Origin: an uncultured Phycisphaera sp.
Lineage (GTDB): Bacteria; Planctomycetota; Phycisphaerae; UBA1845
Length of the DNA: 64,000 nt
Assembly: GCA_964501365.1 (NCBI GenBank)
Contig: CAZCST010000009.1
Span: 45,977 to 109,976 of the forward strand
Reading direction: 5' to 3'
The translations under genes were made by a program, and so were the position numbers. Shown here piece by piece: positions 3,851 through 43,631 of this stretch. The first letter of the stretch is position 1. The number at the start of each line of letters is the position of its first letter. The notes beneath the pieces are model-generated. The model was not told where the DNA came from. It searched no databases and was given only the letters and a program-made list of their open reading frames with translations.

Positions 3851-3964
3851 GGAAAGGGTATAGGGTAATAGGGGATAGAGTCAGGAGTTCCGGGACCGAC
3901 GTGTCTTCGTGCGTATGTTGCAGCGCAGACACTTGGCCCCTATTTCCTGTACCCTAAACCCTGT
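3851..3964. repeat. heptamer-repeat palindrome filling the infB to Zn-ribbon-gene spacer
   Basis: left arm AGGGT(A/T)-type units at 7-8 nt period (3851-3886), right arm cccctat-ttcctgt-accctaa-accctgt (3937-3964), inner stem gtgtc/gacac. Confidence 0.7.
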
Positions 3965-6688
3965 CTACAACGACCGCGCGATCTTGATAACCTCATAACT
4001 TTCGATCACGTCTCCCGTATGCACGTCGTCAAACCCTTCAAGCCGGATACCGCACTCCATGCCCGAACGAACTTCCCGCACGTCATCCTTGATATGTCGC
4101 AACGATGCGATCCTGGCTCCTTCGCGCACGACCCGTCCATCGCGAATGACCTTGACGAGGTGACCGCGTTCCAATGGTCCTGCCGTAACCAGACAGCCCG
4201 CGACTGCACCAACCTTGCTGATGCGGAAGACCTGCCGCACCTGAGCAACGGCCCGCGACTCGATCCGTTCCTCGGGCGTAAGCATGCCCGATAGTGCCTT
4301 GCGAACGTCATCCACCACGTCATAAATCACGCGGTAGGGGCGAACGTCCACGCCGTGTTTTTCGGCCATGCGTCGCGCCCCGGCGGAAATGTCCACGCGA
4401 AATGCGACGATGATGCCTTCGCAAGCCGCCGCCAGAAGGATATCGCTGTCATTCACTGCGCCCACCGCCGAATGGCGAATGGTCAGTACGACTTCGTCAG
4501 AGGGCATTTCGCCCAAAGACTGGCGAAGTGCCGCAAGGCTGCCATCTACGTCGGCCTTGAGAATGACATTGAGCTCGGGCAAATCCTCTGTGCCCTTGCG
4601 CTTGAACATTTCTTCCAGAGTCTTGAGCTTGCGGGTGGAAAGTCGGCCCGTTTCGGTGCGGAGCCGTTTGGTGTCGGAAGAAATCGTCTTGGCCCGCTGC
4701 ATGTTCTCAACGCAGTACAGCGTGTCGCCTGCGATCGGCACATCGTCGAGACCCCATACTTCGACTGGTATTCCGGGCGGCGCGGCATCAACGCGATGCC
4801 CGCGGTCATCAACCAATGCACGAATCTTTCCAAAGGCATTGCCGCAAACCACGAAGTCACCCACCCGCAGCGTGCCTTCCTGAACGAGCAATCGCACGAT
4901 CGGGCCTACGCCAGGTCGCATCGCCGCCTCCACCACGGTTCCCATGCCTGGAAGCGTCGGATCGGCCTTAAATTCCATAAGGCTGTTGAGGTCGGCCAGA
5001 TGTTCGACGAGTTCCTGAATTCCCTGCCCGGTGGTCGTCGAAGTAGGAATCACGTCTACTTCGCCGCCCCACTCGCTGGGATTGAGACCCTGCTCGGCAA
5101 GTTGTCCGTAGATTCGAAGTTTGTTTTGATCGCCCAGGTCGATCTTGTTAAGTGCGACGACGATGGGCACCTTGGCCGCCTGTGCGTGGCGGATGGCTTC
5201 GACCGTCTGGGGCATGACCCCGTCATCCGCCGCAACCACCAGCACGACGACGTCGGTCATTTGCGCTCCGCGAGCGCGCATAGCCGCAAACGCCTCGTGA
5301 CCGGGCGTATCCAAAAAGGTCACAGGACCGCGCGGCGTATCAATATGATACGAGCCGATGTGCTGCGTGATTCCGCCGTCTTCGGCGTCGGCCACACTTG
5401 TCTTGCGAATGGCGTCAAGAAGACTCGTCTTGCCATGGTCAACGTGGCCGAGCATGGCCACCACGGGAGGCCGCAATACCAACTGCGTCCGCTCTCGCTT
5501 GGCGAATTCCTCCTTCAGTTCGTCGAGCGAGGTGCGAGCCGGAACAACCTCCAACTCGATGCCGAAGTGCAACGCGAGCAACTGGGCAAGCTCCGGGGGG
5601 ACGACCATGTTGACGTTGGCCATCATCCCGTGTTCGTCGCGCATGACTTTGAATAATTGGATGAAATTCAGCCCCGTGGCCGAGCAAAGCTCCTTGATCC
5701 GGATCGGCTCGTGAACGGTCGCTTTGGTCTTGGCAGGAGCCTGCTGCGCCGGCTGAGTCGATCCCGGACCCGATGCCTTTCGGCGATGGATTCGGCGGCC
5801 TGTCGCGCCTTCGACGCGCTCGCGGCGTTCGATCAAATCACGGTCGCGCCATTCAGAAAGTTTTTCGCCGCTTTCGGCCGCGCGACCCGCAGACCGCCGC
5901 GTATCAAACCGACCCTTGCGTCGAGCCGAGTCCTTGTCGTCGCTCTTTCCCGGCAACGGGGGAGGACCAGGAGGCATTTCACCCACACGCCCCATGGGCG
6001 CTGCACGCCTGCGCGGAGCGGCGTCGTAATCCGGCGCAGAATACCGAACCACACGCGGACCCGTGAGTTTTGCCGCCGCGGGAACGTTTTGTGGTCCGGC
6101 GGGAACCACGGGCTTCTTCGGCGCCGGCGGTTCCTTCGTTGTTTCCACGACTGACGGTTTGCCAGGCGCCGCCGGCTGGTCTTTTCGTGCGACCGGAACG
6201 GGCGCAGAGACCGGACCGGCAGGTTCACTCACTACACGAGGTGGACTCTTCTCTGTAATCAATTTTTCCACGACGGGAGCGGGTGGCGGAGGAGCAACTT
6301 CCGGTACGACTTCGGCAACGGACGCCGTGGACTCCGGAATCGCGTCCTGATCGTGGACTTCGTCTTGCGAATGGGGAGTTTCGTCGAGAACTTCCGTCGC
6401 CACGCCGCCTTCATCATGTCCGGAATCGGAACTCCCGGCGTCGGCTGCCTGGCCGCGCTTCTTGCCAATGCGCACTTTGGCCAGATCAATGGGGTCGGCA
6501 GTCTCCAGCGTGTTCGTGTGCTGCCCCTCGCTGAACCACTCTCGAATCGTGGCGTGCAGACCGGCACTGAGCGTTGACATGTGGTTCTTCACAGCGTCAA
6601 TGCCTTCGGCCTTGCACTTATCGATGATCGTCTTGCTCGAGACGTTGAGTTCTTTCGCGAGGATGTGAACTCGCATTTTGTCTGCCAA
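3965..6688 (-). CDS. infB: translation initiation factor IF-2
   Basis: [32 protein letters not shown] GTPase motifs; N-terminal RVHILAKEL; start TTG 6688 chosen from AGGAGA spacing. Confidence 0.98.
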
Positions 6689-6708
6689 CAGCACTCTCCT
6701 GCAAACCG

Positions 6709-6755
6709 CTCTCCCTTTCAGGGAGAGGTTGAGGGTGAGGATATGGACTCACCCT
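6709..6755. repeat. CTCTCCC/GGGAGAG palindromic element between nusA and infB
   Basis: ctctccc-tttca-gggagag followed by gagggtgagg and a second hairpin agggtgag/ctcaccct. Confidence 0.75.
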
Positions 6756-6761
6756 GATCCT

Positions 6762-8150
6762 CTACGGCAACGGCTCCTCGACGAGGCTCGCCTTGGTCGC
6801 TTCGCCCTGTTCGGCTGTTTCCGTCTTGCGAGCCGCACGCCACTCGGCAGCCAGCCCCGCAATCATCTTCGCTTCCCGTTTGACTCGATCGGCTTCTGTC
6901 ATTCCTGTCGGCTGACCATCAGCATCCACGGCCTGCCCCTCGGCCGCCGCCTTCGCCGCTTCGGCCGCCGCAGCCTTTGCTGCCGCCTTGGCCGCCTCTG
7001 CCTCGGCGGCAAGTCGCGGCGCCGCTTCTGTAGCCACTTCTACAATTTTTGCCGCCAGCACATCCGTCAGACCCAGTTCCGTGACCAGAGTCTCTGTCCC
7101 GACATCCGGCAAATCGCCAAGCGAAACAATTCCGATCGCCAGCAGCTTGTCGAGAAGTACGTCTTCAACGCCCTCGATCTGCTTGAGGACCTTCTCCATG
7201 TCGTCGATGTTCTTGTCGTATTCAGCGGGCGTCAGAATATCGATATCCCAGCCGGTCAGCCGGGCGGCCAGACGCACGTTTTGTCCGCGCTTCCCAATGG
7301 CCAGCGAAAGCTGATCCTCAGCGACGATCACAGTCGCCCGTCCCAGCTCAAAACACAGAAAGGTCTCTTTCACTTCTGCAGGTTTGAGCGCATTGGAAAT
7401 CAAGACCTGCGATGATTCATTCCATCGAACGATGTCGATTTTCTCGCCGCCAAGCTCATCGACGATATTGCGAATGCGACTGCCGCGAACTCCCACGCAT
7501 GCACCCACGGCATCCACTTTGGAGTCGATCGAGGAAACCGCAATCTTCGTGCGATACCCTGCTTCGCGAGCCAGTGCCCGCACCTCGATGATTCGTTCCG
7601 AAACTTCGGGCACTTCCAATTCGAACAGTCGCCGGATGTAATCGGGATGAGTCTGCGTCAGCACAATGCGAACCTGGCTCTGCTCTTCACGAACGTCCAG
7701 AATCATTCCTCGCACCCGTTCGCCAGCCTGGTGGGCCTGACCCGGTATTTGCTCGCTGCGCGGCAGAAAGGCCTCCGTACGGCCAAGATTGACCACCATG
7801 CCGCCGCCCTCAAACCGCGTAACCGTTCCCGTCAAAACCTGGCCGACTCGCTCGGAAAATTCCTCGAAAATGGCATTTCGCTCATCTTCGCGGATCTTTT
7901 GAATCATAACCTGTTTGGCAGTCTGGGCGGCGATACGGCCCAAGGACTTCATATCGATCGGGCTGCCTTGCACCATCGCCGTTACATCGCCCGTCAAACG
8001 ATCAATCGCCACCTGAACGTCTTCGACTTCGTCGTAGGCCTTGCGCGCAGCGGATACCATCGCGGCTTCCAAGTCCTGAAAGACGCTTTCCTTCTCAATG
8101 TTCTTGTCTCGACTGATCGAGTCGATAAATCGGATCAGGTCGGTATTCAT
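6762..8150 (-). CDS. nusA: transcription termination/antitermination factor NusA
   Basis: S1 domain, AREAGYRTKIAV, DAVGACVGVRGSRI, AIGKRGQNVRLAARLTGW KH motifs; true start MNTDL at 8150. Confidence 0.98.
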   Translation of the reverse strand: MNTDLIRFIDSISRDKNIEKESVFQDLEAAMVSAARKAYDEVEDVQVAIDRLTGDVTAMVQGSPIDMKSLGRIAAQTAKQVMIQKIREDERNAIFEEFSERVGQVLTGTVTRFEGGGMVVNLGRTEAFLPRSEQIPGQAHQAGERVRGMILDVREEQSQVRIVLTQTHPDYIRRLFELEVPEVSERIIEVRALAREAGYRTKIAVSSIDSKVDAVGACVGVRGSRIRNIVDELGGEKIDIVRWNESSQVLISNALKPAEVKETFLCFELGRATVIVAEDQLSLAIGKRGQNVRLAARLTGWDIDILTPAEYDKNIDDMEKVLKQIEGVEDVLLDKLLAIGIVSLGDLPDVGTETLVTELGLTDVLAAKIVEVATEAAPRLAAEAEAAKAAAKAAAAEAAKAAAEGQAVDADGQPTGMTEADRVKREAKMIAGLAAEWRAARKTETAEQGEATKASLVEEPLP

Positions 8151-8171
8151 AGCTTCGAGACCATTCCTTAA

Positions 8172-8207
8172 CCCCCTCTCCCCTTGGGAGAGGGATGGGG
8201 TGAGGGC
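8172..8207. repeat. CTCTCCC/GGGAGAG palindromic element upstream of nusA
   Basis: ccctctccc-ctt-gggagaggg-atggggtgagggc. Confidence 0.8.
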
Positions 8208-12087: not shown

Positions 12088-12127
12088 TTGTCCGCCTATC
12101 TAATTTCTGCTTTCCGCTTTCCGCATT
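12088..12127. repeat. heptamer tandem repeat downstream of fabG
   Basis: taa-tttctgc-tttccgc-tttccgc-atttt; shares ttgtccg..ctaatttctgc with 12870-12893. Confidence 0.6.
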
Positions 12128-12870: not shown

Positions 12871-12897
12871 TGTCCGTACTTTCTAATTTCTGCGTTG

Positions 12898-13845: not shown

Positions 13846-13878
13846 CGCTTTTGCCTTGTTGCCTCGTTGCCTGGCCGA

Positions 13879-14868: not shown

Positions 14869-14920
14869 TCCTGATTACCCCGTAGCCTGATTGCCTGCCG
14901 CCTTATTGCCTTTTCGGAAA

Positions 14921-20104: not shown

Positions 20105-20276
20105 GGGCGTCCTTCGATGGAAAAGAGGAAGTTGAGTCCCTTCCGGATATATCGGACGATGCCTAGGTGCAATTGATTAGACCTTGTCGAGTTATCGGGA
20201 TTTCGATTTATCAGACCTCAGCGCCTGCCGATATTTCCCATGAAACCCGTAAGCGAGGATTCTCGAAGGACCTGGC

Positions 20277-20960: not shown

Positions 20961-20983
20961 TCCGAATACGCACCCGGCGAAGC

Positions 20984-21010
20984 CCGCTCCCTTCCAGGGA
21001 GTAGAGGGGG
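20984..21010. repeat. degenerate CTCCC/GGGAG palindromic element
   Basis: ctccc-ttcca-gggag-tagaggggg in intergenic spacer. Confidence 0.45.
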
Positions 21011-21076
21011 CGAAAGCTGGAAATGCCGTCTCATCGTGTGCTTTCGCAAACATCGAGACCAAGTACACTCTCTCTC

Positions 21077-27453: not shown

Positions 27454-27508
27454 GCGCAGCGAAGAATCTCCGGCAGCCAAAGATCCATCGCCCTGCTCAG
27501 GATGACGG
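27444..27508. repeat. CGTC/TGTC-type REP-like palindrome overlapping thiE stop
   Basis: tcactctgagcgcagcgaagaatct ... agatccatcgccctgctcaggatgacg. Confidence 0.75.
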
Positions 27509-27878: not shown

Positions 27879-27978
27879 AGTCATCCTGATCGCAGCGAAG
27901 GATCAGACGTTTTTGATCGAGAATCTTCGCTTCAGATTGACGATCTCCGGAGGATTCCCAGCTCCGCTCAGAATGACA
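27879..27978. repeat. CGTC/TGTC-type REP-like palindrome in yeaG leader
   Basis: gtcatcctgatcgcagcgaaggatc ... gctccgctcagaatgaca. Confidence 0.75.
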
Positions 27979-28020
27979 GCCGCTTGAGGCGCAAATGGGC
28001 GCCCAATGGAGGTTTCGGCG

Positions 28021-30090: not shown

Positions 30091-30158
30091 AAGATTGAAA
30101 TGAGAAGATAGAAGAGTGAAAAAGATTCTATCTTCTCTCTTCTAACTTCTCACTTTCC
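30091..30158. repeat. heptamer-repeat hairpin between yeaG and yeaH
   Basis: tgagaag-atagaag-agtgaaa arm vs ttctatc-ttctctc-ttctaac-ttctcac arm. Confidence 0.8.
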
Positions 30159-30161
30159 ATC

Positions 30162-31262: not shown

Positions 31263-31271
31263 CCGCCGACC

Positions 31272-32834: not shown

Positions 32835-32968
32835 ATCAGTCGGGTAAGGCGCATCGCCGGTTGATGTACAACCCTCGTCGAGCGACGGCGATCGTACCAA
32901 CGGCGGAAATGTGGACACGGGTTGCATGCCCGGTCATCCAAACGGCAAGCAGGAACGATGATTTGTAG

Positions 32969-35218
32969 CTACTGATCCGGCTTCGGGGCCAATTGTTTCG
33001 AAAGGTCTGCCGGGGTTTGCACGGGAGTCTGGCAACGGAAATTTTCGCAGACATAGGCCGCCGCCTTGCCATTGATGCGCCCTTTGCCGGTGAGCAGGGG
33101 AATTCGCTCGTCGGTAACCTTGTCAGGCGAGAATACGATCACTTTGTTAGGTAGATACACACTCCAGACGGTGCGGAGCAAGGCGTGAGTTAGCTCGTAA
33201 CCGGCGTTCGACTTGGTTCGTGAGTCCTCACCCTCACCCCGGCCCTCTCCCTGGAAGGGAGAGGGGGTCATGTCGCCGACGATGGCGATCTCCTTGACCG
33301 TGTCATGGTAGAAATCGGACGCGCACATCAGGCGCTCGTATGCGCCGGGCGAATCGACGGCCTTCGGGCCAAAGGCGCGGAAAATCGTTTCCGCCTTTTC
33401 ACGGAAGTCCTTGCGTCCCAGCAGGATTGCCAGGCGTTGAAGGTTGAGCGCGTGGACGGAATTGCCTGAGGGAATCGCACTGTCCTGCGGCTGCTTGGAG
33501 CGCACCAGCAATTTTTCCCCGTCGCTGGCCGTGTAAAAGAACGCCCCGTCCCTGTCGTCGAAATAATACCGAATCGTGATGTCCGTGAGCCGCTCGGCCT
33601 CGTCGAGCCAACGGCGCTCGAAGGTGGCCTCGTAAAGATTCAGCAAGCCTTCGATCAGGAACGAATAGTCGCTGAGCGTGGCCGTCAGCCGAGCCTCTCC
33701 CGCACGACAGGTGCGCAGCAACCTTCCGTCTTTCTGCATTCTTGTGAGTATGAAATCGGCAGCCTGCGCAGCTGCTCTTGCGTATTTCGGCTCATCGAGA
33801 ACTGCCGCGCCCTTCGCGAGGCTCGCGATCATCAGCCCGTTCCAGTCGGTGAGAATCTTGTCATCGAGTGCCGGCGGGACGCGCTTGCCTCGCACTGCCC
33901 GCATTTTCTCGCGCCATGTCGACAGCTTTTTCGTGAACTCTTCAGGGTCGATTTTTTCAAGCTTGGCGAATACGTCGGGGGGCTTGGAGACGTGCAGGAT
34001 GTTCTTGGGGCCGGGCGGCGCGTGCCCCATGCGTTCGAACCAGTTGCCGCGATCAGTCACGTCGTAATACTTGCAAAACAGACGGCCGTCGTCCTCGCCG
34101 AGAATCGAAATCACTTCGGGCACGGTCCAGAGGTAGAATTTTCCTTCGAGCTTTTCGCTGTCCGCATCGCGGCTGGAGTAGAAGGCGCCCTCGGGCGAGC
34201 GGAGATCTTCGAGCACATAGTCAAAAATATCCCGCGCAACCGTTGCATATTCCGGCTTTTTCAGCGCGAGAAATCCATCGAGATAGATCGCGCTCACCAT
34301 GGCCTGGTCGTAGAGCATTTTCTCGAAGTGCGGGACGAGCCACTGCGTGTCCGTGCTGTAGCGGCAGATGCCACCGCCGATGTGATCGTAAATCCCGCCC
34401 CGGGCCATGTTATCGAGCGTCACGTCCACGGCCTGGGCCAGCTCGGCTTTTCCGGTTCGCCGATGCACGCGGAGCAAGAGGTCCATGGCCATGCTCGGCG
34501 GGAATTTGTTGCTGCCCCCGCCGCTCATGCCGCCCAAGGACGTGTCAAAGTAGCGGACGAGCGCCGCGGCCGTATCGTTGACCGCCTCCCGCGGAATGAC
34601 CCCCTCGGCGGCCGGCTTGCTTGCCGACCAGCGATTCAGGAAGTCCTGCGCTCCTGAGGCCCCCTTGAGAATTTCATCTCGCTGCTCCCGCCACATGCGG
34701 GCGATTTCCGTGAGCAGAGGAATAAAATGTTCTCTGGGAAAATACGTGCCTGCGTGAAAGGGAACACCCTGGGGCGTCAAGAAAACGCTCATCGGCCAGC
34801 CGCCCCCGCCAGTGGCTGCCTGCGTGTAGGCCATATACAGTTCGTCGATGTCGGGCCGCTCCTCGCGATCCACCTTGATGCTCACAAAGTTCGCGTTGAG
34901 CACGTCGGCCACGTCGTCCTGCTCGAAGCACTCGTGCTCCATGACGTGGCACCAGTGGCAGGCCGCATACCCGATGCTGAGGAAGATGGGCCTGTCCTCT
35001 GCCTTGGCTTTCGCGAATGCGTCTTCGCCCCATTCGTACCAGTCCACGGGATTGTGGGAATGTTGCAGCAGGTACGGACTTGTCGCCTTTGCGAGGCGAT
35101 TTGCCGGACGCTCTTTGGTTTGCATCTGATCCTTCATGCCTGAATCCTCCTGCGCCAGCGCCGGCAACGCGATCAAAACAACGAGAGTGAAATACAATCG
35201 TAAGCGCATGAAGTGCAT
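32969..35218 (-). CDS. YyaL/DUF255 thioredoxin-domain + (alpha/alpha)6 glycosidase-like protein, signal peptide present
   Basis: [73 protein letters not shown]. Confidence 0.93.
33231..33267. repeat. CTCTCCC/GGGAGAG element translated antisense in frame inside the YyaL-family gene
   Basis: ccctcaccccggccctctccc-tggaa-gggagagggg; read as [13 protein letters not shown]. Confidence 0.85.
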
Positions 35219-35527
35219 TGTAGGGGAACCGCGATCGAATGGCCTGCGAAGGGTCTGGATGGGTATGCAAGCGGGAATAAGTGAAATCTGTGGTCATCTT
35301 GTCTGACTTGAATCCCGGTTCGTTTGGAAAAATTCTGTGTTCGCGTTGTGGTTGGTATATGTTCGGGTACTACCTGTAGTGGTTCGAAATCGCCATGCGG
35401 CGGATAGGTGCAAGGCTGGGCGGTATTTGTGCATCACCCTTCATAACATGCGGGGCGCGCGCAGATTTTTGGGGATTTGCGATCAGCGTGGTTTGATGAA
35501 TAGTTGGCCCCATGCGTGCGGAGCGAT

Positions 35528-35927
35528 GGTGCATCACACGGGGATGCACCCTACCCGAATGTGAGAACTTTGGTTCCATCGTTGGAAGCCCGCTGAAGCG
35601 GGCTAAGACGGTGGCAGAGGACCGGTTGGGAAACCAGACCTAAAGGTCTGGCCTAAGCCGCTTCGCGGGCAAGCCCCGTAAACGGGGCTGTTGGATCTCC
35701 TGTCGATCGCGATGCGAGCAGGTCAAGACCAAACCACGCGGATTGGGTTGAATTAGAAATAACGGGATTCCTTCTCCCGGGTTGGATACGGCTCAACCCG
35801 GACCACCCAACCGAACAAATGGTTTTTCCTCCGCCCGCTTCGGGGCGGAGATGGTTATCGCGTCAACAACCACGGGTTCCGCTGCGCTTCACCCGTGGCT
35901 ACACACCTCGGCCCCGCATGGGGCCGA
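35528..35927. repeat. cluster of REP-like hairpins upstream of mutS
   Basis: GTAG-tagged hairpins at 35528-35554 and 35869-35902 (minus strand); 18-nt palindromes at 35587-35604, 35634-35651, 35672-35689; ccgggttg/caacccgg 35777-35801. Confidence 0.8.
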
Positions 35928-36032
35928 ACCGGCGCGAATCCATCAATTGTTGGGTTCGATACTCCTTAGAATTGAAGAGGGACACCTTCGCTGACATTTG
36001 GCCCCAAGCGGCCAGCGGACTACATTGGTTTC

Positions 36033-39017
36033 ATGGCCGCCACGCAAGTTGGGCTCAATCCTCCGCTCGATTCCCTCACGCCGGCCATGCGCCAATATGT
36101 GGAGCAAAAGAAGCGGGTTGGCGACGCAGTTCTGCTCTTTCGCATGGGGGACTTCTACGAAACGTTTTACGACGACGCGGTGCTGTGCTCGAGAGTGCTG
36201 GGGATTGCGCTCACGTCGCGGGACAAGAACTCCGCGAGCCCTGTGCCGCTTGCGGGGATTCCTTACCACGCGCTCGACGGCTACCTGAGCAAGCTGGTGG
36301 CGGCGGGGTACAAGGTCGCGATTTCCGAACAAATGGAGGACCCAAAGCAAGCCAAGGGCGTCGTGCGCCGCGATGTGGTCCGCATCGTCACGCCGGGCAC
36401 GCTTACGGAGGAAACGCTGCTGGCCGACCGCGACGACAACCTGCTGGCTGCGCTGTGTCTTCGCGGCGAGGAAGTGGGATTGGCGATTGTCGAGCTGGCG
36501 TGCGGGCGGCTTGAGACGATTGAATTAGAAAGACAACCAGGCAACGAGGCAAGAAGGCAACAAGGCGAGAGGCCAGCCCTCACCCCTGGCCCCTCTCCCG
36601 AGGGGAGAGGGGGAAAGGCGGACCCCCCTGAGTCCCCCCTTATGAAGGGGGGAGGCGGGGTCGCGCGAGCAGCGGAGGCAGCCAAGGCGGAAGCCTCCGG
36701 CGGCTCACTCCTGCTGGACACGCTGGTGCGGCTGCGTCCGGCGGAGTTGCTGATCGCGGAGGAGGCCGGAGCTGAGACGGAGCGGATTGCACAAGAGCTG
36801 CGAACCCTCTGCGGCACAGCGATCACGCATAGGCCTGTTCACGAGTTTTCGGAGTATCAAGCGCAGCGGACACTGCTGGAACATTTCGGCGTGGCGACGC
36901 TTGCGGGATTTGGATTTGATGAGCCGGACAATTCCCTTGTTGCGGCCGGTGGGATCATTCAATACCTGCAGGAAACGCAGAAGACTGCGCTCGGGCATGT
37001 GTCGGCCATCCGTCGCCGCAACGCGGCCCAAAGCGTGCAAATCGATCACAGCAGTTGGCGGTCGCTGGAGATCGACCGGACGCTGCGCGGGGGCCAGCGC
37101 GAGGGATCGCTGCTCCAGGCCATCGACCGCACCGTCAACGCGGCCGGCGCTCGAATGCTGCGTCATTGGTTGGCGGCCCCACTGACAGATGGGAACGCGA
37201 TACGCGAGCGGCAACAGGCCGTTGGCTTTCTCGTTGAGGAAGGCGCACTGCGCGAGCGAATCCGGCAGCGACTGAAGCACCTGGCCGATGTGGAGCGTAT
37301 CGCGGGGCGCGTCGCGCTGGGGCGGGCCTCACCTCGCGACCTTGAATCGCTGGGGCGGACGTTGGCGGCGTTGCCGGGATTGCTCGATTGCGAGCGGGCC
37401 AATGAAATTCTATTTCTCCATCAGATTAAAAAGACGCTCGGCGACAAGTGTGGTGAGCCGGCCAACGGCCCGCTTGCCGGCCCCTGGGATTTGGATTCGC
37501 CCTCACCCCGGCCCTCTCCCGAGGGGAGAGGGGGAAAAGCGGACCCCCCTGCGCCCCTCCTTGGCAAGGGGGGAGGCGGAGTCGCGGAACTTGCTTCGCT
37601 GCTTGGCTCGGCCATCCGCGAAAATCCTGCCGGCAACCTGCGCGAGGGAGGCTTCATCGCCGACGGGTATCATGCAGAACTCGACCGGCTGCGGGCCATC
37701 TCGCACGACGGACAGACGTGGCTGGCGGAGTATCAACGCAGGGAGATCGAACGCACGGGGATCGCCCACCTCAAGGCGGGATACAACCGCGTGTTCGGCT
37801 ACTACCTGGAAGTGCCACACTCTGGCACTGCGAAGGTTCCGGTGGATTACATTCGCAAACAGACGGTGAAGAACGCGGAACGCTATATCACCGAAACACT
37901 GAAGAACCACGAGCACGAAGTTCTCACCGCACAGGACCGGGCGAATCAACTGGAATTCGAGCTTTTCGAGGAGCTGCGAAAGAAGGTGGCGGCGTGGCTT
38001 GTTCCGCTGGGTCGAGTCGCGGAAGCGATCGCGCGGCTGGACTGTGCGGCCGCTCTGGCCGAGTTCGCGGAGGAGCGGCGCTGCGTCCGGCCGGAAATCG
38101 TGGACGACGGACGGCTGGAAATCATCGACGGGCGGCACCCCGTGCTCGATCAGGCCATTGGAGATGCGTTCGTGCCCAACGACACATGCATGATCGATGA
38201 TGCGCGCGTCTTTGTGATCACGGGTCCGAACATGGCGGGTAAGAGCACCTACATCCGGCAGGTCGCGTTGCTGACTATTTTGGCCCAAATCGGGGCGTTC
38301 GTGCCGGCACGGCGAATGACGTTTTCGCTGGTGGATCGAATCTTCGCGCGAGTCGGATCGTCGGACGAAATCATGCGGGGACAATCGACGTTTATGGTCG
38401 AAATGGTGGAAGCGGCGAACATTTTGCACAACGCCACGCGGAATTCGCTGGTAATCCTCGATGAACTGGGCCGCGGGACGAGCACGTTTGACGGGCTGTC
38501 GCTGGCCTGGGCGGTGACGGAGCATCTGGCGGAAAAGACGGCGTGTCGGACCCTGATCGCGACGCATTATCACGAGTTGATTGAACTGGGCGCGATGCTG
38601 AAGGGCGTTAGAAACTTCAATGTCGCGGTACGAGAAAATCGCGCCAAGACTGAAGATAGAAGAGTGAAGAGTGAAGGCGAATCGACCACTGCCGAGTCGT
38701 CCATCGCATTCCTGCATAAGATTGTTGAGGGTGGGGCGAACCAGAGTTTTGGCATCCACGTTGCGCGGCTGGCCGGAGTACCACGCAGTGTCGTCGATCG
38801 AAGCCGGGAAGTATTGGACCAGCTTCAGCGGCGGCTGGCGGGGACTGCGCATTCGCCCGCGGTGAGCGCGGTAAAGTCGAAGGACGTGGACCAGTTGGCC
38901 TTGTTCCGGGAGCCAGGGGAGGAATTGATGGAGGCGTTAAGGGAGTTGGATCCCGATCGCCTCACGCCTCTGGAGGCGCTCACGCGACTCAAAGATTTGA
39001 AAGATCGGTTTGGGTAG
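36033..39017 (+). CDS. mutS: DNA mismatch repair protein MutS with three repeat-derived insertions
   Basis: TPAMRQY, FRMGDFYETF, LAGIPYH, ITGPNMAGKSTYIRQ, GQSTFMVEM, LDELGRGTSTFDG, ATHYHEL, SFGIHVARLAGVP. Confidence 0.98.
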   Translation: MAATQVGLNPPLDSLTPAMRQYVEQKKRVGDAVLLFRMGDFYETFYDDAVLCSRVLGIALTSRDKNSASPVPLAGIPYHALDGYLSKLVAAGYKVAISEQMEDPKQAKGVVRRDVVRIVTPGTLTEETLLADRDDNLLAALCLRGEEVGLAIVELACGRLETIELERQPGNEARRQQGERPALTPGPSPEGRGGKADPPESPLMKGGGGVARAAEAAKAEASGGSLLLDTLVRLRPAELLIAEEAGAETERIAQELRTLCGTAITHRPVHEFSEYQAQRTLLEHFGVATLAGFGFDEPDNSLVAAGGIIQYLQETQKTALGHVSAIRRRNAAQSVQIDHSSWRSLEIDRTLRGGQREGSLLQAIDRTVNAAGARMLRHWLAAPLTDGNAIRERQQAVGFLVEEGALRERIRQRLKHLADVERIAGRVALGRASPRDLESLGRTLAALPGLLDCERANEILFLHQIKKTLGDKCGEPANGPLAGPWDLDSPSPRPSPEGRGGKADPPAPLLGKGGGGVAELASLLGSAIRENPAGNLREGGFIADGYHAELDRLRAISHDGQTWLAEYQRREIERTGIAHLKAGYNRVFGYYLEVPHSGTAKVPVDYIRKQTVKNAERYITETLKNHEHEVLTAQDRANQLEFELFEELRKKVAAWLVPLGRVAEAIARLDCAAALAEFAEERRCVRPEIVDDGRLEIIDGRHPVLDQAIGDAFVPNDTCMIDDARVFVITGPNMAGKSTYIRQVALLTILAQIGAFVPARRMTFSLVDRIFARVGSSDEIMRGQSTFMVEMVEAANILHNATRNSLVILDELGRGTSTFDGLSLAWAVTEHLAEKTACRTLIATHYHELIELGAMLKGVRNFNVAVRENRAKTEDRRVKSEGESTTAESSIAFLHKIVEGGANQSFGIHVARLAGVPRSVVDRSREVLDQLQRRLAGTAHSPAVSAVKSKDVDQLALFREPGEELMEALRELDPDRLTPLEALTRLKDLKDRFG
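36576..36666 (+). repeat. double-hairpin palindromic element, copy 1, in frame in mutS
   Basis: ccctctccc-ga-ggggagaggg plus ccccctt/aaggggg hairpin; preceded by octamer array 36534-36572. Confidence 0.88.
37499..37586 (+). repeat. double-hairpin palindromic element, copy 2, in frame in mutS
   Basis: near-identical to 36576-36666 (tctcccgaggggagagggggaaa.gcggacccccctg...aaggggggaggcgg.gtcgcg). Confidence 0.88.
38647..38676 (+). repeat. heptamer array in frame in MutS ATPase domain
   Basis: tgaagat-agaagag-tgaagag-tgaag; 17-nt identity with 30104-30120 and 16-nt identity with 41888-41903. Confidence 0.8.
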
Positions 39018-39036
39018 TTTTCGTTGGCCGATTTGT

Positions 39037-39130
39037 TGCACCCCTTCAGGGTGCAGGTTCTGGTGTATCCGTATTCCGGGGGTATCGCTTCGCTCAACCC
39101 CCGGCTACTTTATTAGACCCCTTCGGGGTC
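39037..39130. repeat. composite GTAG-type REP downstream of mutS
   Basis: tgcacccc/gggtgca hairpin, ccgggggt/acccccgg-ctac hairpin, gacccc-ttcg-gggtc hairpin; same layout as 35831-35927. Confidence 0.8.
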
Positions 39131-39152
39131 AAGAGATTCCATACGAATGGAG

Positions 39153-39240
39153 TTTCAAAGATACAAGGCTCAAGAGTTTAAGAGATCAAGGGTTCAAGAG
39201 TCTAAGAGTTCGAGAGTTCAAGCGTCCAAGGGTTTGGGGG
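39153..39240. repeat. degenerate octamer tandem array (TTCAAGAG consensus, ~10 units) upstream of cmk
   Basis: ctcaagag-tttaagag-atcaaggg-ttcaagag-tctaagag-ttcgagag-ttcaagcg-tccaaggg. Confidence 0.85.
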
Positions 39241-39280
39241 TTCAGGTGACCTGTGGCGGAAAAATCCCTATCATCATTCC

Positions 39281-39937
39281 ATGATCGTGACGATCGACGG
39301 GCCTGCCGGGTCTGGAAAATCGACTGCCGCACGCAAGCTGGCCGCCCGGCTGCAAATCCCCTACCTCGATACTGGGGCCATGTATCGGGCGATCGCCTAC
39401 GAATGTCTGCGGCGCGGCGTGGACCTTGGCAACGCAGGGACTGTCGAGGCGGTGGCGAAGGGGCTCAAGCTGGACATTGATTGCGGGCCCACGCACACCC
39501 GCATCCGCGTGAACGGAAGCGACGTGAGCGAAGCCATTCGCACGATGGAAGTCAGCAGCGCGACTTCACGTATCGCCAAGATGCCCGGCGTTCGCAAACT
39601 CCTCGTCGAGCAGCAGCGGCAGATCGGCGCCAAACTCCAATCCTTTGTTACAGAGGGTCGCGATCAAGGCAGCGTGGTCTTCCCGCAAGCGGACGTGAAG
39701 TTTGTCCTGGAAGCCTCGCTCGAACGGCGGGCCAGACGGCGACTGGAAGAAATGATCGGCGACGGAGAGGCCGTCACCCTGAACGCAGTCCAGGACAACC
39801 TTGCACAGCGCGACGCCGTGGACGCCCGCCAATGGGAGCCTCTGCTTTCGGATCGGGCGGCGATTATTCTCGATACGAGCAGCCTGACGATCCACGAGGT
39901 CGTGGACCGGCTGGTTGAGCACGTCCGAGAGAAGTGA
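39281..39937 (+). CDS. cmk: cytidylate kinase
   Basis: IVTIDGPAGSGKST, YLDTGAMYRA, EGRDQGSVVFP. Confidence 0.95.
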   Translation: MIVTIDGPAGSGKSTAARKLAARLQIPYLDTGAMYRAIAYECLRRGVDLGNAGTVEAVAKGLKLDIDCGPTHTRIRVNGSDVSEAIRTMEVSSATSRIAKMPGVRKLLVEQQRQIGAKLQSFVTEGRDQGSVVFPQADVKFVLEASLERRARRRLEEMIGDGEAVTLNAVQDNLAQRDAVDARQWEPLLSDRAAIILDTSSLTIHEVVDRLVEHVREK

Positions 39938-40027
39938 CGCAACCATTACGCTGGAAAACGCCATTTCGGACTGCAATCATGCGGTGGCAAATGGGTACAA
40001 ATTCCTGGCCGTATGCGTAATCTGCAT

Positions 40028-40055
40028 TTGACGATTGATTCGTAAAGACTAGATT
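40028..40055 (+). promoter_or_regulatory. possible sigma70 promoter of the secretion locus
   Basis: TTGACG - 16 nt - TAGATT. Confidence 0.35.
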
Positions 40056-40107
40056 GAAATCGAGTCGGGTTCCGAGTGTCCGGCCGAGGCAATTTCCGGG
40101 TTCAGCG

Positions 40108-41313
40108 ATGCCCAGTTTCAGCTATAAGGCAGTGGGTCAGGGAGGCAAGCACGTCACCGGCGTGCTGACGGCCGAAAACTATTCGGTCGCGCTGCGCCAA
40201 CTGGATGAGCTATCGCTTTTTCCGGTCCACGTCCGCGAAGGCAACGAACAGGGAACTGTGCCCTTTAGCGGTGGCCGACGACGCAAGGTCAAGAGTTCGC
40301 ACCTCACGACGTTTTACAGCCAGCTGGCCGACCTGCTGAAGGCGGGCGTGCCCATGATGCGCTCGCTGGACGTGCTGGGGAAGCAGTCGTCCACCGGCTC
40401 GCTCATGATGACGGTGCGCGAGCTTCGCGAAGATATTTCCGGCGGTATGGCGCTCGGCGAGGCGATGGCCAAATATCCACATGCGTTTTCACCGTTGCAC
40501 GCCTCCATGGTTCGTGCCGGCGAGCAAGGCGGATTTCTGGAGGATGTACTCACGCGCATCGCGATCTTCTCGGAACGACAGGACGAGCTTCGCAACAAGC
40601 TGCTGGGCGCGATGATTTATCCGATCATCCTGGTGGTGATCGCCACACTGATCCTGGTCATGCTCATGGTGGTTGTGGTTCCCAAGCTCGGAGACCACCT
40701 GCGGCCTGAAACCTTCAACTTCATGACCCACATTGTGTTTGGCGTGAGCCATGCACTGCGAGATCATTACATCGGGATTCTGATCGGCGTTTTCGTCGTG
40801 GTGGCGGCGGTGAGCTCATGGCTCAAGACCGCGGCGGGCAAGCGCATGTGGGACATGTACAAACTCCGGGGTCCGGTCCTGGGCAAGGTCTTCACCATGG
40901 TGGCGATCTGCCGCTTCTGCCGAATTCTCGGAACCATGCTGCACAACGGCGTGCCCATTTTGCAGGCGCTGCGCATTTCCAAGGACTCGGCGGGAAGTGA
41001 GATTCTGGCAGCCACGATTGAAAAGTCGGCAGAGAGCGTCAGGAAAGGGGCCGCGCTTTCGACGCCCCTGGGCGAGTCGGGACTGTTTCCCCAAACGATT
41101 CTCGACATGATCGCCGTCGCCGAAGAGAGCAACAATCTCGAAACGGTGCTGGTGCAGATTGCCGAGACGAACGAAATGCGCACGGCCCGGTCCATCGACC
41201 TGGCGGTGAGAATTCTGGAGCCGGTGTTGCTGTTTTTCATGGCGGGGATTGTGTTCTGCATCGCCGTGGCCTTGCTGCTGCCCATCCTTACAATGGGCAC
41301 AGGGGTACAATAG
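40108..41313 (+). CDS. gspF: type II secretion inner-membrane platform protein GspF/PilC
   Basis: QLADLLKAGVP, MVRAGEQGGFLEDVL.RIA, MIYP, MLHNGVPILQAL, MIAVAEES, RILEP. Confidence 0.95.
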   Translation: MPSFSYKAVGQGGKHVTGVLTAENYSVALRQLDELSLFPVHVREGNEQGTVPFSGGRRRKVKSSHLTTFYSQLADLLKAGVPMMRSLDVLGKQSSTGSLMMTVRELREDISGGMALGEAMAKYPHAFSPLHASMVRAGEQGGFLEDVLTRIAIFSERQDELRNKLLGAMIYPIILVVIATLILVMLMVVVVPKLGDHLRPETFNFMTHIVFGVSHALRDHYIGILIGVFVVVAAVSSWLKTAAGKRMWDMYKLRGPVLGKVFTMVAICRFCRILGTMLHNGVPILQALRISKDSAGSEILAATIEKSAESVRKGAALSTPLGESGLFPQTILDMIAVAEESNNLETVLVQIAETNEMRTARSIDLAVRILEPVLLFFMAGIVFCIAVALLLPILTMGTGVQ

Positions 41314-41315
41314 GA

Positions 41316-41385
41316 TTGAGGAATGGCGGATGCGGAATGATGAATGAATTTTCGATTTGAGAATATCGATTGTCGATTTGAAACG
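41316..41385. repeat. two heptamer arrays between gspF and gspG
   Basis: gaggaat-ggcggat-gcggaat-gatgaat then tttcgat..tatcgat-tgtcgat. Confidence 0.65.
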
Positions 41386-41422
41386 GCGAAACAAACACAG
41401 GATTGAACGCGGGAGAAATGCG

Positions 41423-41887
41423 ATGCAAAGGAAAATGATTCGAAGGCGATCGGGTTTTACATTGATCGAAGTGTTGCTGGTGGCAGGCATTCTGGCCGTA
41501 CTGGCGGCCTTTGCGATCCCCAGCCTGCTTGGAACTGCCAAGAAAACGCAAATCAAGCTGGCAATGGCGGCGATCGGACGCAACGGACCCATCGCAAAGG
41601 GCCTAACGCAATATAAATTCGCCATGGGTAAATATCCGGACACCGACGAGGGCCTGGCGGCGCTTTACAAGCCCAAGGAGTATCACAAGGAAGATGAGCG
41701 CTACGATGGTCCGTACATGGAGGGCACGCTTGAAGAGCTTCGGGACCCCTGGGGTCAACCCTTTGAGTACCGTTCACCGGGCGAAATGAACGAAAGCGAA
41801 TATGACCTTTGGAGCCGCGGCCCGGATCAAAAGGACGACGGCGGCAAGGAAGGCAGTGACGACGTGAAGAACTGGCGGGAGAAATAG
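41423..41887 (+). CDS. gspG: major pseudopilin GspG
   Basis: RRRSG|FTLIEVLLV, GKYP..DEGLAAL, DPWGQPFEYRSPGE..YDLWSRGPD..DD. Confidence 0.95.
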   Translation: MQRKMIRRRSGFTLIEVLLVAGILAVLAAFAIPSLLGTAKKTQIKLAMAAIGRNGPIAKGLTQYKFAMGKYPDTDEGLAALYKPKEYHKEDERYDGPYMEGTLEELRDPWGQPFEYRSPGEMNESEYDLWSRGPDQKDDGGKEGSDDVKNWREK

Positions 41888-41970
41888 AGACTGAAGATAG
41901 AAGTGAGAAGTGAGAAGATAGAAAGAGAGTTCTAAAGTCCGGTTTCAGTTTCCCTTTTCAATCTTCTCAC
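41888..41970. repeat. heptamer-repeat palindrome between gspG and next pseudopilin
   Basis: agaagtg-agaagtg-agaagat-agaaaga arm; tcttctcac right arm. Confidence 0.75.
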
Positions 41971-41997
41971 ATGGGGCTTCGATGGCGCGGGGTGGTC

Positions 41998-42831
41998 ATG
42001 AACAGGAAAACCGTACAGCCCGCTCGCGCATATACGCTGATCGAAATTGTGCTGGTGATCGGACTGCTCCTGCTCATCAGCGCGATCGCATTGCCCAACT
42101 TTTTCAATCAATTTGAGCGCGAACAACTTCCCACGTCGGCCGAGCAGTTGCGGGCACTCATTATTCTGACCCGGGCCAACGCCGCGCTGGACTCCAAGCG
42201 CTATCGCATCCGGTTCCCGCGCAAGGAGGAACTCGACGACCTGGGCACACGTCAGCAGCCCATGGTCGAACGTGAAGACGACCCGATGGAGCGCCCGGAT
42301 GAGTTTCTGCCCGTACGAGCCAGCTGGGCCGTCGGTCAGACGTTGCTGAGTAATGTTCGATGCGCCGAAATCCGCCTCGGGCGACCCTTGATTGTCGACC
42401 TGAAACTGCGGCGAGAATCGGCCACCACGCAACTCGACGAGGCCCTTGAATCGCGCAACCAAAGCGAAAAGTTCGAGCGCGAGCTCCCTCCGATTTACAT
42501 CGAACCCGACGGCACGAGCGACTGGGCGACACTGGTCCTGACTCAGGCAGCGGAGGAAGTGCCGATCAACGAACTGTGGAACCAAAAGGGTATTGATGTC
42601 ATCGTCGATGGGCTCAGCGGGCTGGTCTGGCTCCAGCGCCCCTTCTACGACGAAGAACTTGACTTGTTTGAGGAGAAGAACTGGCCGGCGGTACTCCGCA
42701 AGGATTTCCTTACGCCGAGGAAGCTCACCGAACGCGACATTCTCGAACTGCGCCAGGTTCCTGCGGAAATGCAAGGCAGGAAGACCACGGCCGCCAAGGA
42801 ACTGGAGCAGGAGGAAGGCGCAAAGCCATGA
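41998..42831 (+). CDS. minor pseudopilin, GspH-like position
   Basis: PARA|YTLIEIVLVIGLLLLISAIALP type III signal; position after gspG. Confidence 0.85.
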   Translation: MNRKTVQPARAYTLIEIVLVIGLLLLISAIALPNFFNQFEREQLPTSAEQLRALIILTRANAALDSKRYRIRFPRKEELDDLGTRQQPMVEREDDPMERPDEFLPVRASWAVGQTLLSNVRCAEIRLGRPLIVDLKLRRESATTQLDEALESRNQSEKFERELPPIYIEPDGTSDWATLVLTQAAEEVPINELWNQKGIDVIVDGLSGLVWLQRPFYDEELDLFEEKNWPAVLRKDFLTPRKLTERDILELRQVPAEMQGRKTTAAKELEQEEGAKP

Positions 42832-43631
42832 CTCGAAGTTCAAAGTTCAAAGTTCAAAGTTCAAAAAAGGCACGGGGGGTGTGTTTGCTCCGCGGTGCTT
42901 TTGAATTTCGCACTTTGAACTTTGACGCTCAGGTCCGCAGGGCGTACGTCATGCTGGAGACCGTGATCGCCACCGGCCTGCTCATCATTGGACTGGGCGT
43001 CATCGGCGCGCAGCTTCAGGATTCCAACAAGGCGGTTCATACCATGCGGCTCAAGACGCAGGCTGTCATGCTCGCCGAAACGCAACTCGCCATGATGGAC
43101 CTGGGGCTGGTCGAGCTCGACTCGGTGGACGAGGTTCAGGATGGCGACTTCGGCTCGCGCTATCCGGACTGGGGCTGGCGGCTGATCACTGAGCCGACGG
43201 CCATCGAGGGCTTGTTCCGCATCACCATCCAGGTGCAATACATCTATCGCAACGAACCATATCGCGAAGACTCCTTTGACCATGAGCACGCAGACACTCT
43301 GTTCAGCGCGGTGGCATTTCGTCAGCCTCCCAAGCCGCTTGATCTGGCGACGGATTTTGGATTAAACGAGGAAGAACTGACGGACTTCACCGACAAAGTC
43401 GGAGAGGCCCAGATTCCCTGCTTTGAAGGCGGCGTGTTCGATCCCACTTGCCTTGCCGGAATCGATATTGAGCAGTTGTTCAAAACCCTGCCCGCACTGC
43501 AAAAGCTGGGAATCAACCTCGGCGATCTCGCCTCCATCATCCCTCCGGACTTGTTGAAACAACTCGAGGACAGCGGCCTGATGGACAAGGCGCAGGGGGC
43601 CGCCGACGGACAGACGGAGCCGGAGCAATGA
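42828..43631 (+). CDS. minor pseudopilin, GspI-like, with repeat-derived leader
   Basis: VRRA|YVMLETVIATGLLIIGLGVI; AVMLAETQLA, GDFG.RYPDWGWRL; ATGA overlap with upstream stop. Confidence 0.85.
   Translation: MTRSSKFKVQSSKKARGVCLLRGAFEFRTLNFDAQVRRAYVMLETVIATGLLIIGLGVIGAQLQDSNKAVHTMRLKTQAVMLAETQLAMMDLGLVELDSVDEVQDGDFGSRYPDWGWRLITEPTAIEGLFRITIQVQYIYRNEPYREDSFDHEHADTLFSAVAFRQPPKPLDLATDFGLNEEELTDFTDKVGEAQIPCFEGGVFDPTCLAGIDIEQLFKTLPALQKLGINLGDLASIIPPDLLKQLEDSGLMDKAQGAADGQTEPEQ

Follow-up and report, generated by a model that had tools for sequence, protein, structure and literature searches.

Dispersed 7- and 8-nt tandem arrays at operon junctions of a Phycisphaerae chromosome and their possible relation to S23p gene cassettes

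Results

Genes and arrays of the window

The DNA analyzed here, called the window throughout, is a 64,000-nt stretch from an uncultured Phycisphaera sp. (contig CAZCST010000009.1, positions 45,977 to 109,976). It belongs to a chromosome of the Phycisphaerae (Planctomycetota): its GspF protein was matched best by Phycisphaerae metagenome-assembled genomes (MAGs) with 90% and 78% identity, followed by matches with 53-71%. According to Pfam, the minus strand carries nusA-infB-...-rbfA and plsX-fabH-fabD-fabG-acpP-fabF; further gene sets are thiD2/thiE, prkA-DUF444-spoVR, mutS and cmk, and a gspF-gspG-pseudopilin-gspK-pilM cluster. Dispersed among these genes are short degenerate tandem arrays with units of 7 or 8 nt, which are confined to co-directional spacers and permissive protein loops. 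In other genomes, arrays of the same build bracket genes of the S23p family, and the window arrays may belong to the same class without the open reading frame (ORF). S23p, also called IVP, stands for PF05635 (23S_rRNA_IVP), a four-helix-bundle protein known as "23S rRNA intervening-sequence protein."

Arrays were mapped with Tandem Repeats Finder and with our own match/mismatch periodicity scan, which was applied with two thresholds and compared with dinucleotide shuffles. Weak and degenerate arrays were added by eye after reading all spacers of the window. In the periodicity scan, the window yielded five arrays of period 7 and five of period 8, compared with 0.38 and 0.65 in the shuffles, and the array frequency is therefore in clear excess of the shuffled null. 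Arrays of periods 4, 5, 10, 11, and 13 were absent from the window in the same scan. All eleven period-7 and period-8 arrays listed in the original prediction, a reading of the sequence made without database searches, were recovered by Tandem Repeats Finder and sequence reading. Including degenerate arrays and an inverted pair found by eye, the window contains about 15 elements:

3851-3964, minus strand: hairpin from the infB stop (3965) to the orf385 start (3839), made of degenerate heptamers with a TAGGGTA-like 5' arm and its complement as 3' arm; z -4.0
6724-6763, minus strand: short inverted pair AGAGGTTGAGGGTGAG / CTCACCCTGATCCTCT in the nusA/infB spacer, beside a CCCTCTCCC-type palindrome; weak member of the class; z -1.6
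12101-12127, minus strand: solo array of 3-4 AAAGCGG units directly 3' of the fabG stop, in the fabG/acpP spacer
12871-12897, minus strand: short degenerate array of AGAAATT/AGAAAGT that makes up the whole fabD/fabG spacer; weak member of the class
13846-13878, minus strand: solo array of three octamers (AGGCAACN) that makes up the whole fabH/fabD spacer, stopping 3 nt short of the ATG of fabD; unstructured, z 0.25
14869-14920, minus strand: degenerate octamers (AGGCAATN), about five units, that make up the whole plsX/fabH spacer; z -0.5
23028-23067, minus strand: octamers GGCGATKN / GGTAATTG that make up the whole spacer from the BatA/VWA gene to orf200
26532-26563, plus strand: 3.4 octamers (ATCGCCAY), in frame, an 11-residue insert in a ThiD2 loop
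30091-30158, plus strand: hairpin that makes up the whole prkA/DUF444 spacer, with a 5' arm of GAAGATA-type heptamers and a 3' arm that abuts the ATG at 30162; z -4.0
36534-36572, plus strand: 4.6 octamers (AGGCAACN), in frame, in the linker of MutS domains I/II
38647-38676, plus strand: four heptamers (GAAGATA/GAAGAGT), in frame, within a MutS domain V loop; in appearance a solo 5' arm from the family to which the 30091 and 41888 hairpins belong
39153-39244, plus strand: solo octamers TCAAGAGT/TCAAGGGT, about 11 units, in the mutS/cmk spacer; unstructured, z 0.9
41316-41385, plus strand: two adjoining degenerate heptamer arrays, four GGAATGN units and then five TCGATTK units, directly 3' of the gspF stop
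41888-41970, plus strand: hairpin that makes up the whole gspG/pseudopilin spacer, adjoining without a gap the TAG at 41885-41887 on one side and the ATG at 41971 on the other, with a 5' arm of GAAGTGA/GAAGATA; z -1.3
42833-42926, plus strand: hairpin of 4.3 TTCAAAG and 3.7 CTTTGAA units, just 3' of an ATGA stop/start overlap at 42828-42831; z -6.1

The units of the window (TAGGGTA, AGGCAACN, GAAGATA, TTCAAAG, TCAAGAGT, GGAATGN, ATCGCCAY, and AAAGCGG) include none of the units of the named families STRR1-3, GGGAATC, GGGGAYT, and TAACTGA. The arrays consist of contiguous 7-8-nt units and do not have the 23-50-nt repeats with unique spacers of similar length that define CRISPR arrays. No Rfam family was matched in the window, which contains no rRNA.

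Position, reading frame, and folding

Placement at gene junctions inside operons, as originally predicted, was borne out by the counts. An array was present in 12 of 24 co-directional spacers, compared with none of the eight divergent or convergent spacers (2.2 kb in total), and the fab operon has one at four of its five junctions. Some arrays represent the complete spacer: 30091-30161 occupies every base between the stop codon of prkA and the ATG of DUF444, and 41888-41970 fills the space from the gspG TAG to the next ATG. Reading in frame occurs in four places. Two arrays lie in MutS (36534-36572 and 38647-38676) and one in ThiD2 (26532-26563), and 42833-42926 is probably read in frame in the pseudopilin leader, in an ORF that begins at the ATGA overlap at 42828.

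Two inverted arms were confirmed at 3851-3964, 30091-30155, 41897-41983, and 42833-42925, and a fifth pair, absent from the earlier list, was found at 6724-6763; the loops measure 8-60 nt. RNA folding was scored as z against shuffles. Folds far more stable than the shuffles were obtained for 30085-30165 (z -4.0), 42826-42935 (z -6.1), and 3836-3968 on the minus strand (z -4.0). Solo arrays were unstructured as RNA (z about 0).

Three copies had been said to share exact matches of 16-17 nt. This holds for pairs of copies: the 17-mer GAAGATAGAAGAGTGAA is found at 30104 and 38652, and the 16-mer AGACTGAAGATAGAAG, which includes the non-repeat edge AGACT, at 38647 and 41888. It does not hold for the three together, as no single string is common to the copies at 30104, 38647, and 41888. 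Because strings of this length are shared exactly between window copies, copying from a common source is favored over local slippage, in agreement with the original prediction.

Turnover at the same sites in related genomes

Relatives were represented by 1.19 Mb of sequence around the orthologous operon from 80 genomes. Strict arrays of period 7 (39) and period 8 (14) were found in these loci, compared with 0-1 for periods 5, 10, 11, and 13. In the conserved plus-strand operon, 38 of 41 arrays were intergenic, and the purine-rich strand was the sense strand in 28 arrays versus 4 (p = 2e-5).

The orthologous junctions show array turnover. At gspF/gspG, arrays of GAATGNC start directly after the stop in the window and in L004, L007, and L019; L009 and L023 have a CAATTAC/GGTAATT hairpin, and the junction is empty in many other relatives. 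The gspG/pseudopilin junction carries GAAGTGA in the window, nine AGGCAACN units in L002, GAAACGCC/GAGGCGT in L004, and an ATTGCCA hairpin in L006, L007, and L009; in the remaining relatives it is empty or contains GC-rich palindromes resembling repetitive extragenic palindromic (REP) sequences. The mutS/cmk spacer has about 40 nt and is empty in the closest relative, L001, compared with 263 nt and an 11-unit array in the window. In the loop of MutS domain V, L001 has AATCGGC and CAATCGA heptamers where the window has GAAGATA. In an alignment of ThiD2, L164 lacks an insert at the array site, and L162 has a different repeat insert in this loop, 40 residues long. The prkA/DUF444 spacer holds a diverged hairpin of GAAGNGN units in L162 and L163, is an empty 30-nt spacer with a Shine-Dalgarno-like sequence in L164 and L165, and contains 380 nt of other repeats in L161. 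The latter genome (DUF444 97% identical) had been considered as the closest relative and was dropped because of its different gene order and this spacer. A GCGAAGCGAAGAATCTC-type repeat was noted both at the start of the L161 spacer (L161 1647-1680) and in the thiE/prkA leader of the window (27454-27470 and 27915-27935).

S23p genes bracketed by inverted 7- and 8-mer arrays

The original prediction had mentioned similar arrays on the flanks of four-helix-bundle genes of the 23S rRNA IVP type. At locus L074, an array of about 11 GGGAAGT/GGGCAGT units and an array of about 15 ACTGCCC units enclose a 135-residue ORF, which was identified by Pfam as PF05635 23S_rRNA_IVP with 138 bits; the gene also matches Pfam bAvd (PF22296) with 28 bits, below the cut-off. 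To this locus were added 80 metagenomic loci fetched around homologues of the L074 S23p protein, and 34 records from a plasmid collection with an S23p homologue, mostly Nostocales, in which 16 annotated genes were inspected. This association proved correct and strong in the metagenomes, in Phycisphaerae, and on the plasmids. An array was located within 250 nt of the S23p gene in 48 of the 80 metagenomic loci, on both sides in 21 of them. Arms were present at all four Phycisphaerae-type loci (L074 and three genes looked up from Phycisphaerae MAGs), and flanking 7/8-mers accompanied each of the 16 plasmid genes of cultured bacteria.

In the metagenomic loci, array density within 350 nt of the S23p gene was 0.63/kb for period 7 and 0.83/kb for period 8, compared with 0.12 and 0.07 farther away, and other periods were essentially absent near the genes. 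With a stricter control from the same loci, arrays were present in 31 of 99 spacers adjoining an S23p gene and in 13 of 100 other spacers (odds ratio 3.05, p = 0.002). The latter figure indicates that arrays are common elsewhere in S23p-bearing genomes. The two flanks are complementary to each other more often than expected: a flank-to-flank stem score of at least 30 was reached in 42 of 76 loci versus 21 of 150 mismatched flank pairs. In 40 of the 42 paired loci the 5' arm was purine-rich. The order of the cassette is constant and consists of the host stop, purine-rich units up to the ribosome-binding region, the ORF, its stop, reverse-complement units, and the next host start. S23p genes mostly run in the direction of their neighbors (61:6 upstream, 50:9 downstream). 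Rfam gave no match in 20 S23p loci, so none of these lies in rRNA.

Examples of the units flanking S23p genes of cultured bacteria are the following:

Nostoc edaphicum: upstream TAGGGAG (nine units), downstream TCCCTAC (five units)
Nostoc sp. C052: upstream GGGAACA, downstream TGTTCCC
Calothrix brevissima: upstream GGGTGTA, downstream TACACCC
Geminocystis: upstream AAGGGAA, downstream TTTTCCC
Gemmatirosa: upstream GGCAGGAG, downstream CTCCTGCC
Riemerella: upstream AAGGTTCA (octamers), downstream complementary octamers

The combination of S23p with period-7/8 arrays is thus present in at least five phyla. The S23p copy of Azospirillum lipoferum, one of the 16 annotated plasmid genes, is located inside 23S rRNA (Rfam LSU, 514 bits) and has inverted heptamer arms of the GAGGACG type; the classical 23S rRNA intervening sequence (IVS) therefore has the same build as the cassette. 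In Pseudanabaena galeata pPg_01 (L191), the arrays around S23p are direct and not inverted (16 AAAAGCT and 10 AAAAGCC units). This cassette and that of Anabaena sp. 90 pANA02 (L192), both with heptamer arrays, are located between cas6 and cas4. 23S rRNA IVP has been reported as statistically associated with CRISPR loci (PMC10910872), an association that cassettes at such sites may explain.

Several further features of the S23p loci were noted. In L074, two direct purine-rich arrays upstream of the S23p gene, GGCAGTG and GGGCAGT, enclose two ORFs of 169 and 60 residues (3773-4571). We would guess from its residues that the longer product is PIN-like, in which case the two ORFs would resemble a toxin-antitoxin pair. 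In L169, a nucleotidyltransferase gene (PF01909) follows the S23p cassette. Arrays may delimit other small cassettes as well. In L093 (2959-3450) and L091 (1138-1787), the same purine-rich units are found on both sides of the S23p ORF and are followed by the complementary arm, as if the gene were lodged in the 5' arm of a pre-existing hairpin. Many S23p homologues are located on contigs of 0.5-2 kb, which fits assembly breaks at the flanking arrays.

The repeat unit follows the protein clade

In 48 loci, the distance between repeat units decreased with increasing identity of the S23p proteins (Spearman -0.32, permutation p <= 0.0005). A unit with at most one difference was shared by 56% of protein pairs at 65-80% identity, compared with 2-4% of pairs below 55%. 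Nine S23p proteins that are 54-77% identical among themselves are all accompanied by AAAGGCAC, and ten others by AAGGGTTC or a close variant. Because neutral DNA would be randomized at such protein divergence, the unit is either constrained or continually renewed from a shared source.

An insertion could be followed at the junction between the genes for aconitase and a LOG-family protein. Filled sites, with the order arm, S23p, arm, were found in L168, L083, and L102. The aconitase frame of these sites extends into the 5' arm, and the ATG of the LOG gene is located after the 3' arm. Nine loci (L178-L186) with the same gene order, and with 79-92% identity to L168 in the LOG protein, have no cassette, and their two genes share an ATGA overlap. 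The comparison of relatives thus yielded empty as well as filled sites here, in addition to the mutS/cmk spacer described above. Judged by these sequences, one whole S23p cassette was inserted into an overlapping ATGA junction. Of the two hallmarks of a MITE, terminal inverted repeats and a target-site duplication, the ends of the L168 cassette are inverted (AAGGGACAAAGG ... CCTTTGTGCCTT), and no clear target duplication was seen in one filled/empty comparison (with L178-L184). The empty junction of L184 (2490-2504) reads TACAAAGGGTAAATGA and includes ACAAAGG, almost one AAAGGCAC unit of the filled-site arrays, which could be insertion microhomology or an array seed. A period-10 array is present at this junction in L187. 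In L188 (1404-2500), the junction is occupied by three to four REP-like hairpins (CCCCNCCATAGTGATGGNGGGGCTAACC) around a 163-residue Y1_Tnp gene, similar to REP-associated tyrosine transposases (RAYT), and a 94-residue ORF. Occupancy by an S23p cassette, a period-10 array, and a REP/Y1_Tnp element marks the aconitase/LOG junction as a repeatedly used safe site.

Other repeats and reading frames of the window

A second repeat family consists of palindromes of the form CCCTCTCCC-N3-5-GGGAGAGGG, located at 6707-6729, 8174-8194, 20983-21008, 33243-33265, 36591-36611, 37512-37532, and 48351-48373. Two copies, each with about 18 more shared bases, belong to the reading frame of MutS (36591-36629 and 37512-37550), where PSPEGRGGKADPP is thereby encoded twice. 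Together with the two 7/8-mer arrays, MutS thus has four repeat-derived inserts. Long divergent or leader regions at 35219-36032 and 39018-39150 are densely occupied by GC-rich REP-like hairpins (e.g. GCACCCCTTCAGGGTGC and GACCCCTTCGGGGTC) and contain no 7/8-mer arrays; the two kinds of element seem to occupy different niches. Two giant ORFs follow the pseudopilin/pilM cluster, at 50067-58097 (2676 residues) and 58272-62915 (1547 residues). The regions 20105-20605 and 21449-21672, called as spacers, look coding, and an alternative ORF at 20277-20960 on the plus strand overlaps the chosen one. The gene calls around 20105-21672 are uncertain, and a pseudogene may be present.

Discussion

We favor, with about as much confidence as doubt, the reading that the window arrays belong, as forms without an ORF, to a widespread class of palindromic insertions that resemble the IVS and are located at operon junctions. 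In its complete form, such an insertion would consist of a purine-rich arm of 7/8-nt units, a PF05635 gene, and the reverse-complement arm. The 23S rRNA IVS would be one placement of this form, with far more copies between the genes of protein operons than in rRNA. No S23p gene is encoded in the window, so its arrays are ORF-less. The original prediction had taken them for footprints of a mobile or repeat-generating system that is not encoded in the window, and this interpretation is supported in part: the association with four-helix-bundle genes is confirmed, and the ORF-less window arrays may be footprints of the S23p system, which might be either mobile or repeat-generating.

Several results weigh against this assignment. 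Neither an S23p gene nor a relic was detected in the window (tblastn and a hidden Markov model (HMM) of 24 S23p proteins) or in the close relatives examined; two weak tblastn matches in the window with E >= 0.01 (42699-42860 and 35850-35948) were inconsistent and had no HMM match. About 50 ORF-less arrays exist for each S23p gene, the related loci having one S23p gene and more than 50 arrays in 1.19 Mb. Arrays more than 400 nt away from an S23p gene shared its unit in only 1 of 22 cases, a comparison of low power given the many units per genome. The window units are marginally nearer to S23p-arm units than random words are, with a mean distance of 1.5 versus 1.83 (p about 0.03 in the same orientation, 0.10 in either orientation). 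The mismatches of the 42 arm stems show no excess of G:U (81 G:U versus 93 A:C), and because of this the complementarity of the arms looks maintained at the DNA level and not by selection on the sense RNA. The arms of L090 differ in period (8 upstream and 7 downstream) and do not fit a simple continuous duplex. ORF-less hairpins of the related loci have no clear purine-first polarity, although these are too few to be informative (4 versus 2, with 3 neutral). Two of the five window hairpins fold no better than shuffles (41882-41975 with z -1.3; 6692-6765 on the minus strand with z -1.6).

Some of these results would be expected if the arrays were ordinary long-unit microsatellites that arise by local slippage favoring 7-8 nt, with S23p genes as small selfish genes that survive in the same spacers. 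The slippage idea is attributed to Mrazek and colleagues (2007) in a quotation in PMC4692102. It would account for the arrays in 13% of spacers not adjoining an S23p gene, for the great diversity of units per genome, where neighboring arrays rarely share the unit of the S23p arms, and for the lack of G:U excess in the stems. Copy number also differs among close relatives and within arms, and strain variation has been reported in Coxiella. We nevertheless consider this explanation unlikely, since slippage does not produce inverted arms and leaves several observations unexplained: exact 16-17-mers at distant sites that include a non-repeat edge, the same unit kept around S23p proteins that are 54-77% identical, and a whole arm-gene-arm unit in an ATGA overlap. 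Moreover, the 2.2 kb of divergent and convergent spacer, where slippage products would be tolerated best, contain no arrays.

The arrays might also be host regulatory sites. A protein that binds single-stranded RNA, be it ribosomal protein S1, a cold-shock protein, or one similar to CsrA, could bind the tandem units in the leader of the downstream gene, and such regulatory sites have been proposed for the TAACTGA repeats of Beggiatoaceae (PMC4679880). Unstructured solo arrays, arrays just upstream of start codons, and the 28 versus 4 preference for the purine-rich strand in the mRNA would suit such sites, as would the GAATGNC array that directly follows the gspF stop in four genomes at only about 70% GspF identity to the window. 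At least ten unrelated units in 64 kb are, however, too many for one regulator. A third of the copies are hairpins, which would hide the sites, some copies are within coding sequence, and the junctions are empty in many relatives. Host regulation is therefore quite unlikely as an explanation of the arrays.

Structure-forming DNA, either G-quadruplex or cruciform, that acts on replication or transcription was examined for the GGGAATC repeats of Xanthomonas (PMC4692102). A few units here have G-runs (TAGGGTA at 3851 and GGGCAGT in L074), and arm complementarity is symmetrical between the strands, as for a DNA-level feature. Most window units (GAAGATA, TTCAAAG, AGGCAAC, GGAATGN) lack a G-run, though, and the solo arrays are strongly oriented relative to transcription, which makes this explanation very improbable. 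The hardly credible reading of the hairpins as intrinsic terminators or attenuators within operons was rejected: although they are stable intergenic stems, none is among the seven terminator-like sites that the terminator scan picked in 28000-44000, none is followed by a T-run (the U-tail of the RNA), and they are located in operons expected to be co-expressed (fab, nusA-infB, and the pseudopilin genes).

If the window arrays are ORF-less IVS-like insertions, copies would spread or be renewed at the DNA level, by copy-and-paste or by gene conversion among arrays. The survivors would be those at stop/start junctions or in tolerant loops. A paired copy would introduce a stem of 20-40 bp into the operon transcript, which by analogy to the Coxiella IVS is a predicted substrate of RNase III. 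Its 3' arm would cover the region just before the next start, and this start would be opened when the ribosome that ends the upstream gene melts the stem. The region just 5' of the next start has no Shine-Dalgarno sequence at either 30162 or 41971. Opening of the stem by the upstream ribosome would keep the translational coupling of the original ATGA-type junction. Solo arrays would be kept when their purine-rich, AGG-containing strand is in the mRNA, and they may serve as a leader for the next gene. In the most interesting and also most tentative step, pentameric S23p would recognize its own 7/8-nt unit, the protein being encoded elsewhere in the genome or lost.

This last step leads to a more far-reaching proposal, which we regard as possible and put forward tentatively. 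The S23p pentamer and the arrays might be a co-evolving protein-repeat pair similar to RAYT/REP, in which the protein reads its own unit. The cassette would colonize stop/start junctions, rRNA helices, and cas operons, and its descendants without an ORF would be the repeats of 7 and 8 nt that have lacked an explanation since 1990, including the cyanobacterial STRR, the Xanthomonas GGGAATC repeats, and the window arrays.

Dispersed heptamers of cyanobacteria, Xanthomonas, and Beggiatoa have been on record for decades without a source or function. To our knowledge, the S23p/IVP family, with thousands of members and homologous to Avd, likewise has no known role. The present results tie the two together across at least five phyla, and they make the classical rRNA IVS a special case of a cassette that is mostly found in mRNA operons. 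The protein-repeat pair, if true, would give a function to a very large Avd-related protein family. Direct experiments are feasible in tractable carriers such as Nostoc PCC 7120 (S23p WP_010994075.1) and Xanthomonas campestris. On the practical side, the elements appear to break metagenome assemblies, are read in frame by gene callers, and burden essential proteins, MutS for example, with disordered inserts. Of most interest is the link across phyla, which is directly testable.

Comparison with known systems

The nearest known counterparts include the S23p-bearing 23S rRNA IVS of Coxiella burnetii and Leptospira (PMC4990558). In the IVS of C. burnetii, terminal inverted repeats pair into a 28-bp stem, which RNase III cuts in vitro; the cut site is separated from the S23p start by three to four tandem purine-rich heptamers, GACAGAT, in a number that varies by strain (PMC4990558). 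S23p cassettes likewise have an inverted-repeat stem around the PF05635 gene, and complementary arms are found in the window. Unlike the IVS, however, the window elements are located in mRNA operons and not in helix 25 or 45 of 23S rRNA, they have no ORF, and many are single-armed; RNase III cutting was demonstrated for Coxiella and is predicted for the window elements.

The GGGAATC repeats of Xanthomonas and GGGGAYT repeats of Nostoc are degenerate dispersed tandem heptamers, about 90% of them intergenic and mostly between co-oriented ORFs, and 70-75 convergent (inverted) pairs occur per Xanthomonas genome; S23p genes are unmentioned in that paper (PMC4692102). The window arrays resemble them in being tandem, dispersed, and mainly intergenic between co-oriented genes. 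They differ in that they belong to another phylum, have many unrelated units in place of one dominant unit, and include octamers as commonly as heptamers. The STRR heptamers of Calothrix/Nostoc, heterocystous cyanobacteria, are older still; they are cited in PMC4692102 and were reportedly described by Mazel et al. in 1990. The TAACTGA direct repeats of Beggiatoaceae and some Cyanobacteria and Bacteroidetes are present in two to six or more copies a few nt upstream of start codons, with few within ORFs. Their transfer mechanism is not known, no gene association is reported, and inverted pairs are almost absent, with one case (PMC4679880). The window heptamers are also near starts, with a few in ORFs, but they have several units, and inverted pairs are frequent.

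In REP/REPIN-RAYT systems, as in S23p cassettes, a small gene is bracketed by inverted clade-specific repeats, and ORF-less copies are far more numerous and extragenic. The repeats of the present class are tandem 7/8-mers and not one palindrome, however, and S23p is a four-helix bundle without known catalytic activity. The gene found elsewhere between such arrays is PF05635 and not Y1_Tnp, and no PF01797 (Y1_Tnp) was detected in Pfam scans of about 40, but not all, of the larger window ORFs. S23p has the same fold as Avd, the accessory protein of diversity-generating retroelements (DGRs). A homopentameric toroid is reported for S23p of Xanthomonas in PMC4990558, with reference to Lin et al. 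2006, and five chains are present in 2GSC, the PDB entry of Xanthomonas XCC0516. Unlike in DGRs, no reverse transcriptase or template/variable repeat was noticed next to the S23p genes examined, in which no search was aimed at them. The window arrays are not DGR repeats.

A literature search, which left subscription journals mostly outside, yielded no paper that links S23p genes generally with inverted 7/8-mer arrays, and we claim no priority. Known before were dispersed heptamers and the heptamers in one Coxiella IVS; the window contributes a further phylum, octamers, a multitude of units in one genome, and copies that are read in frame.

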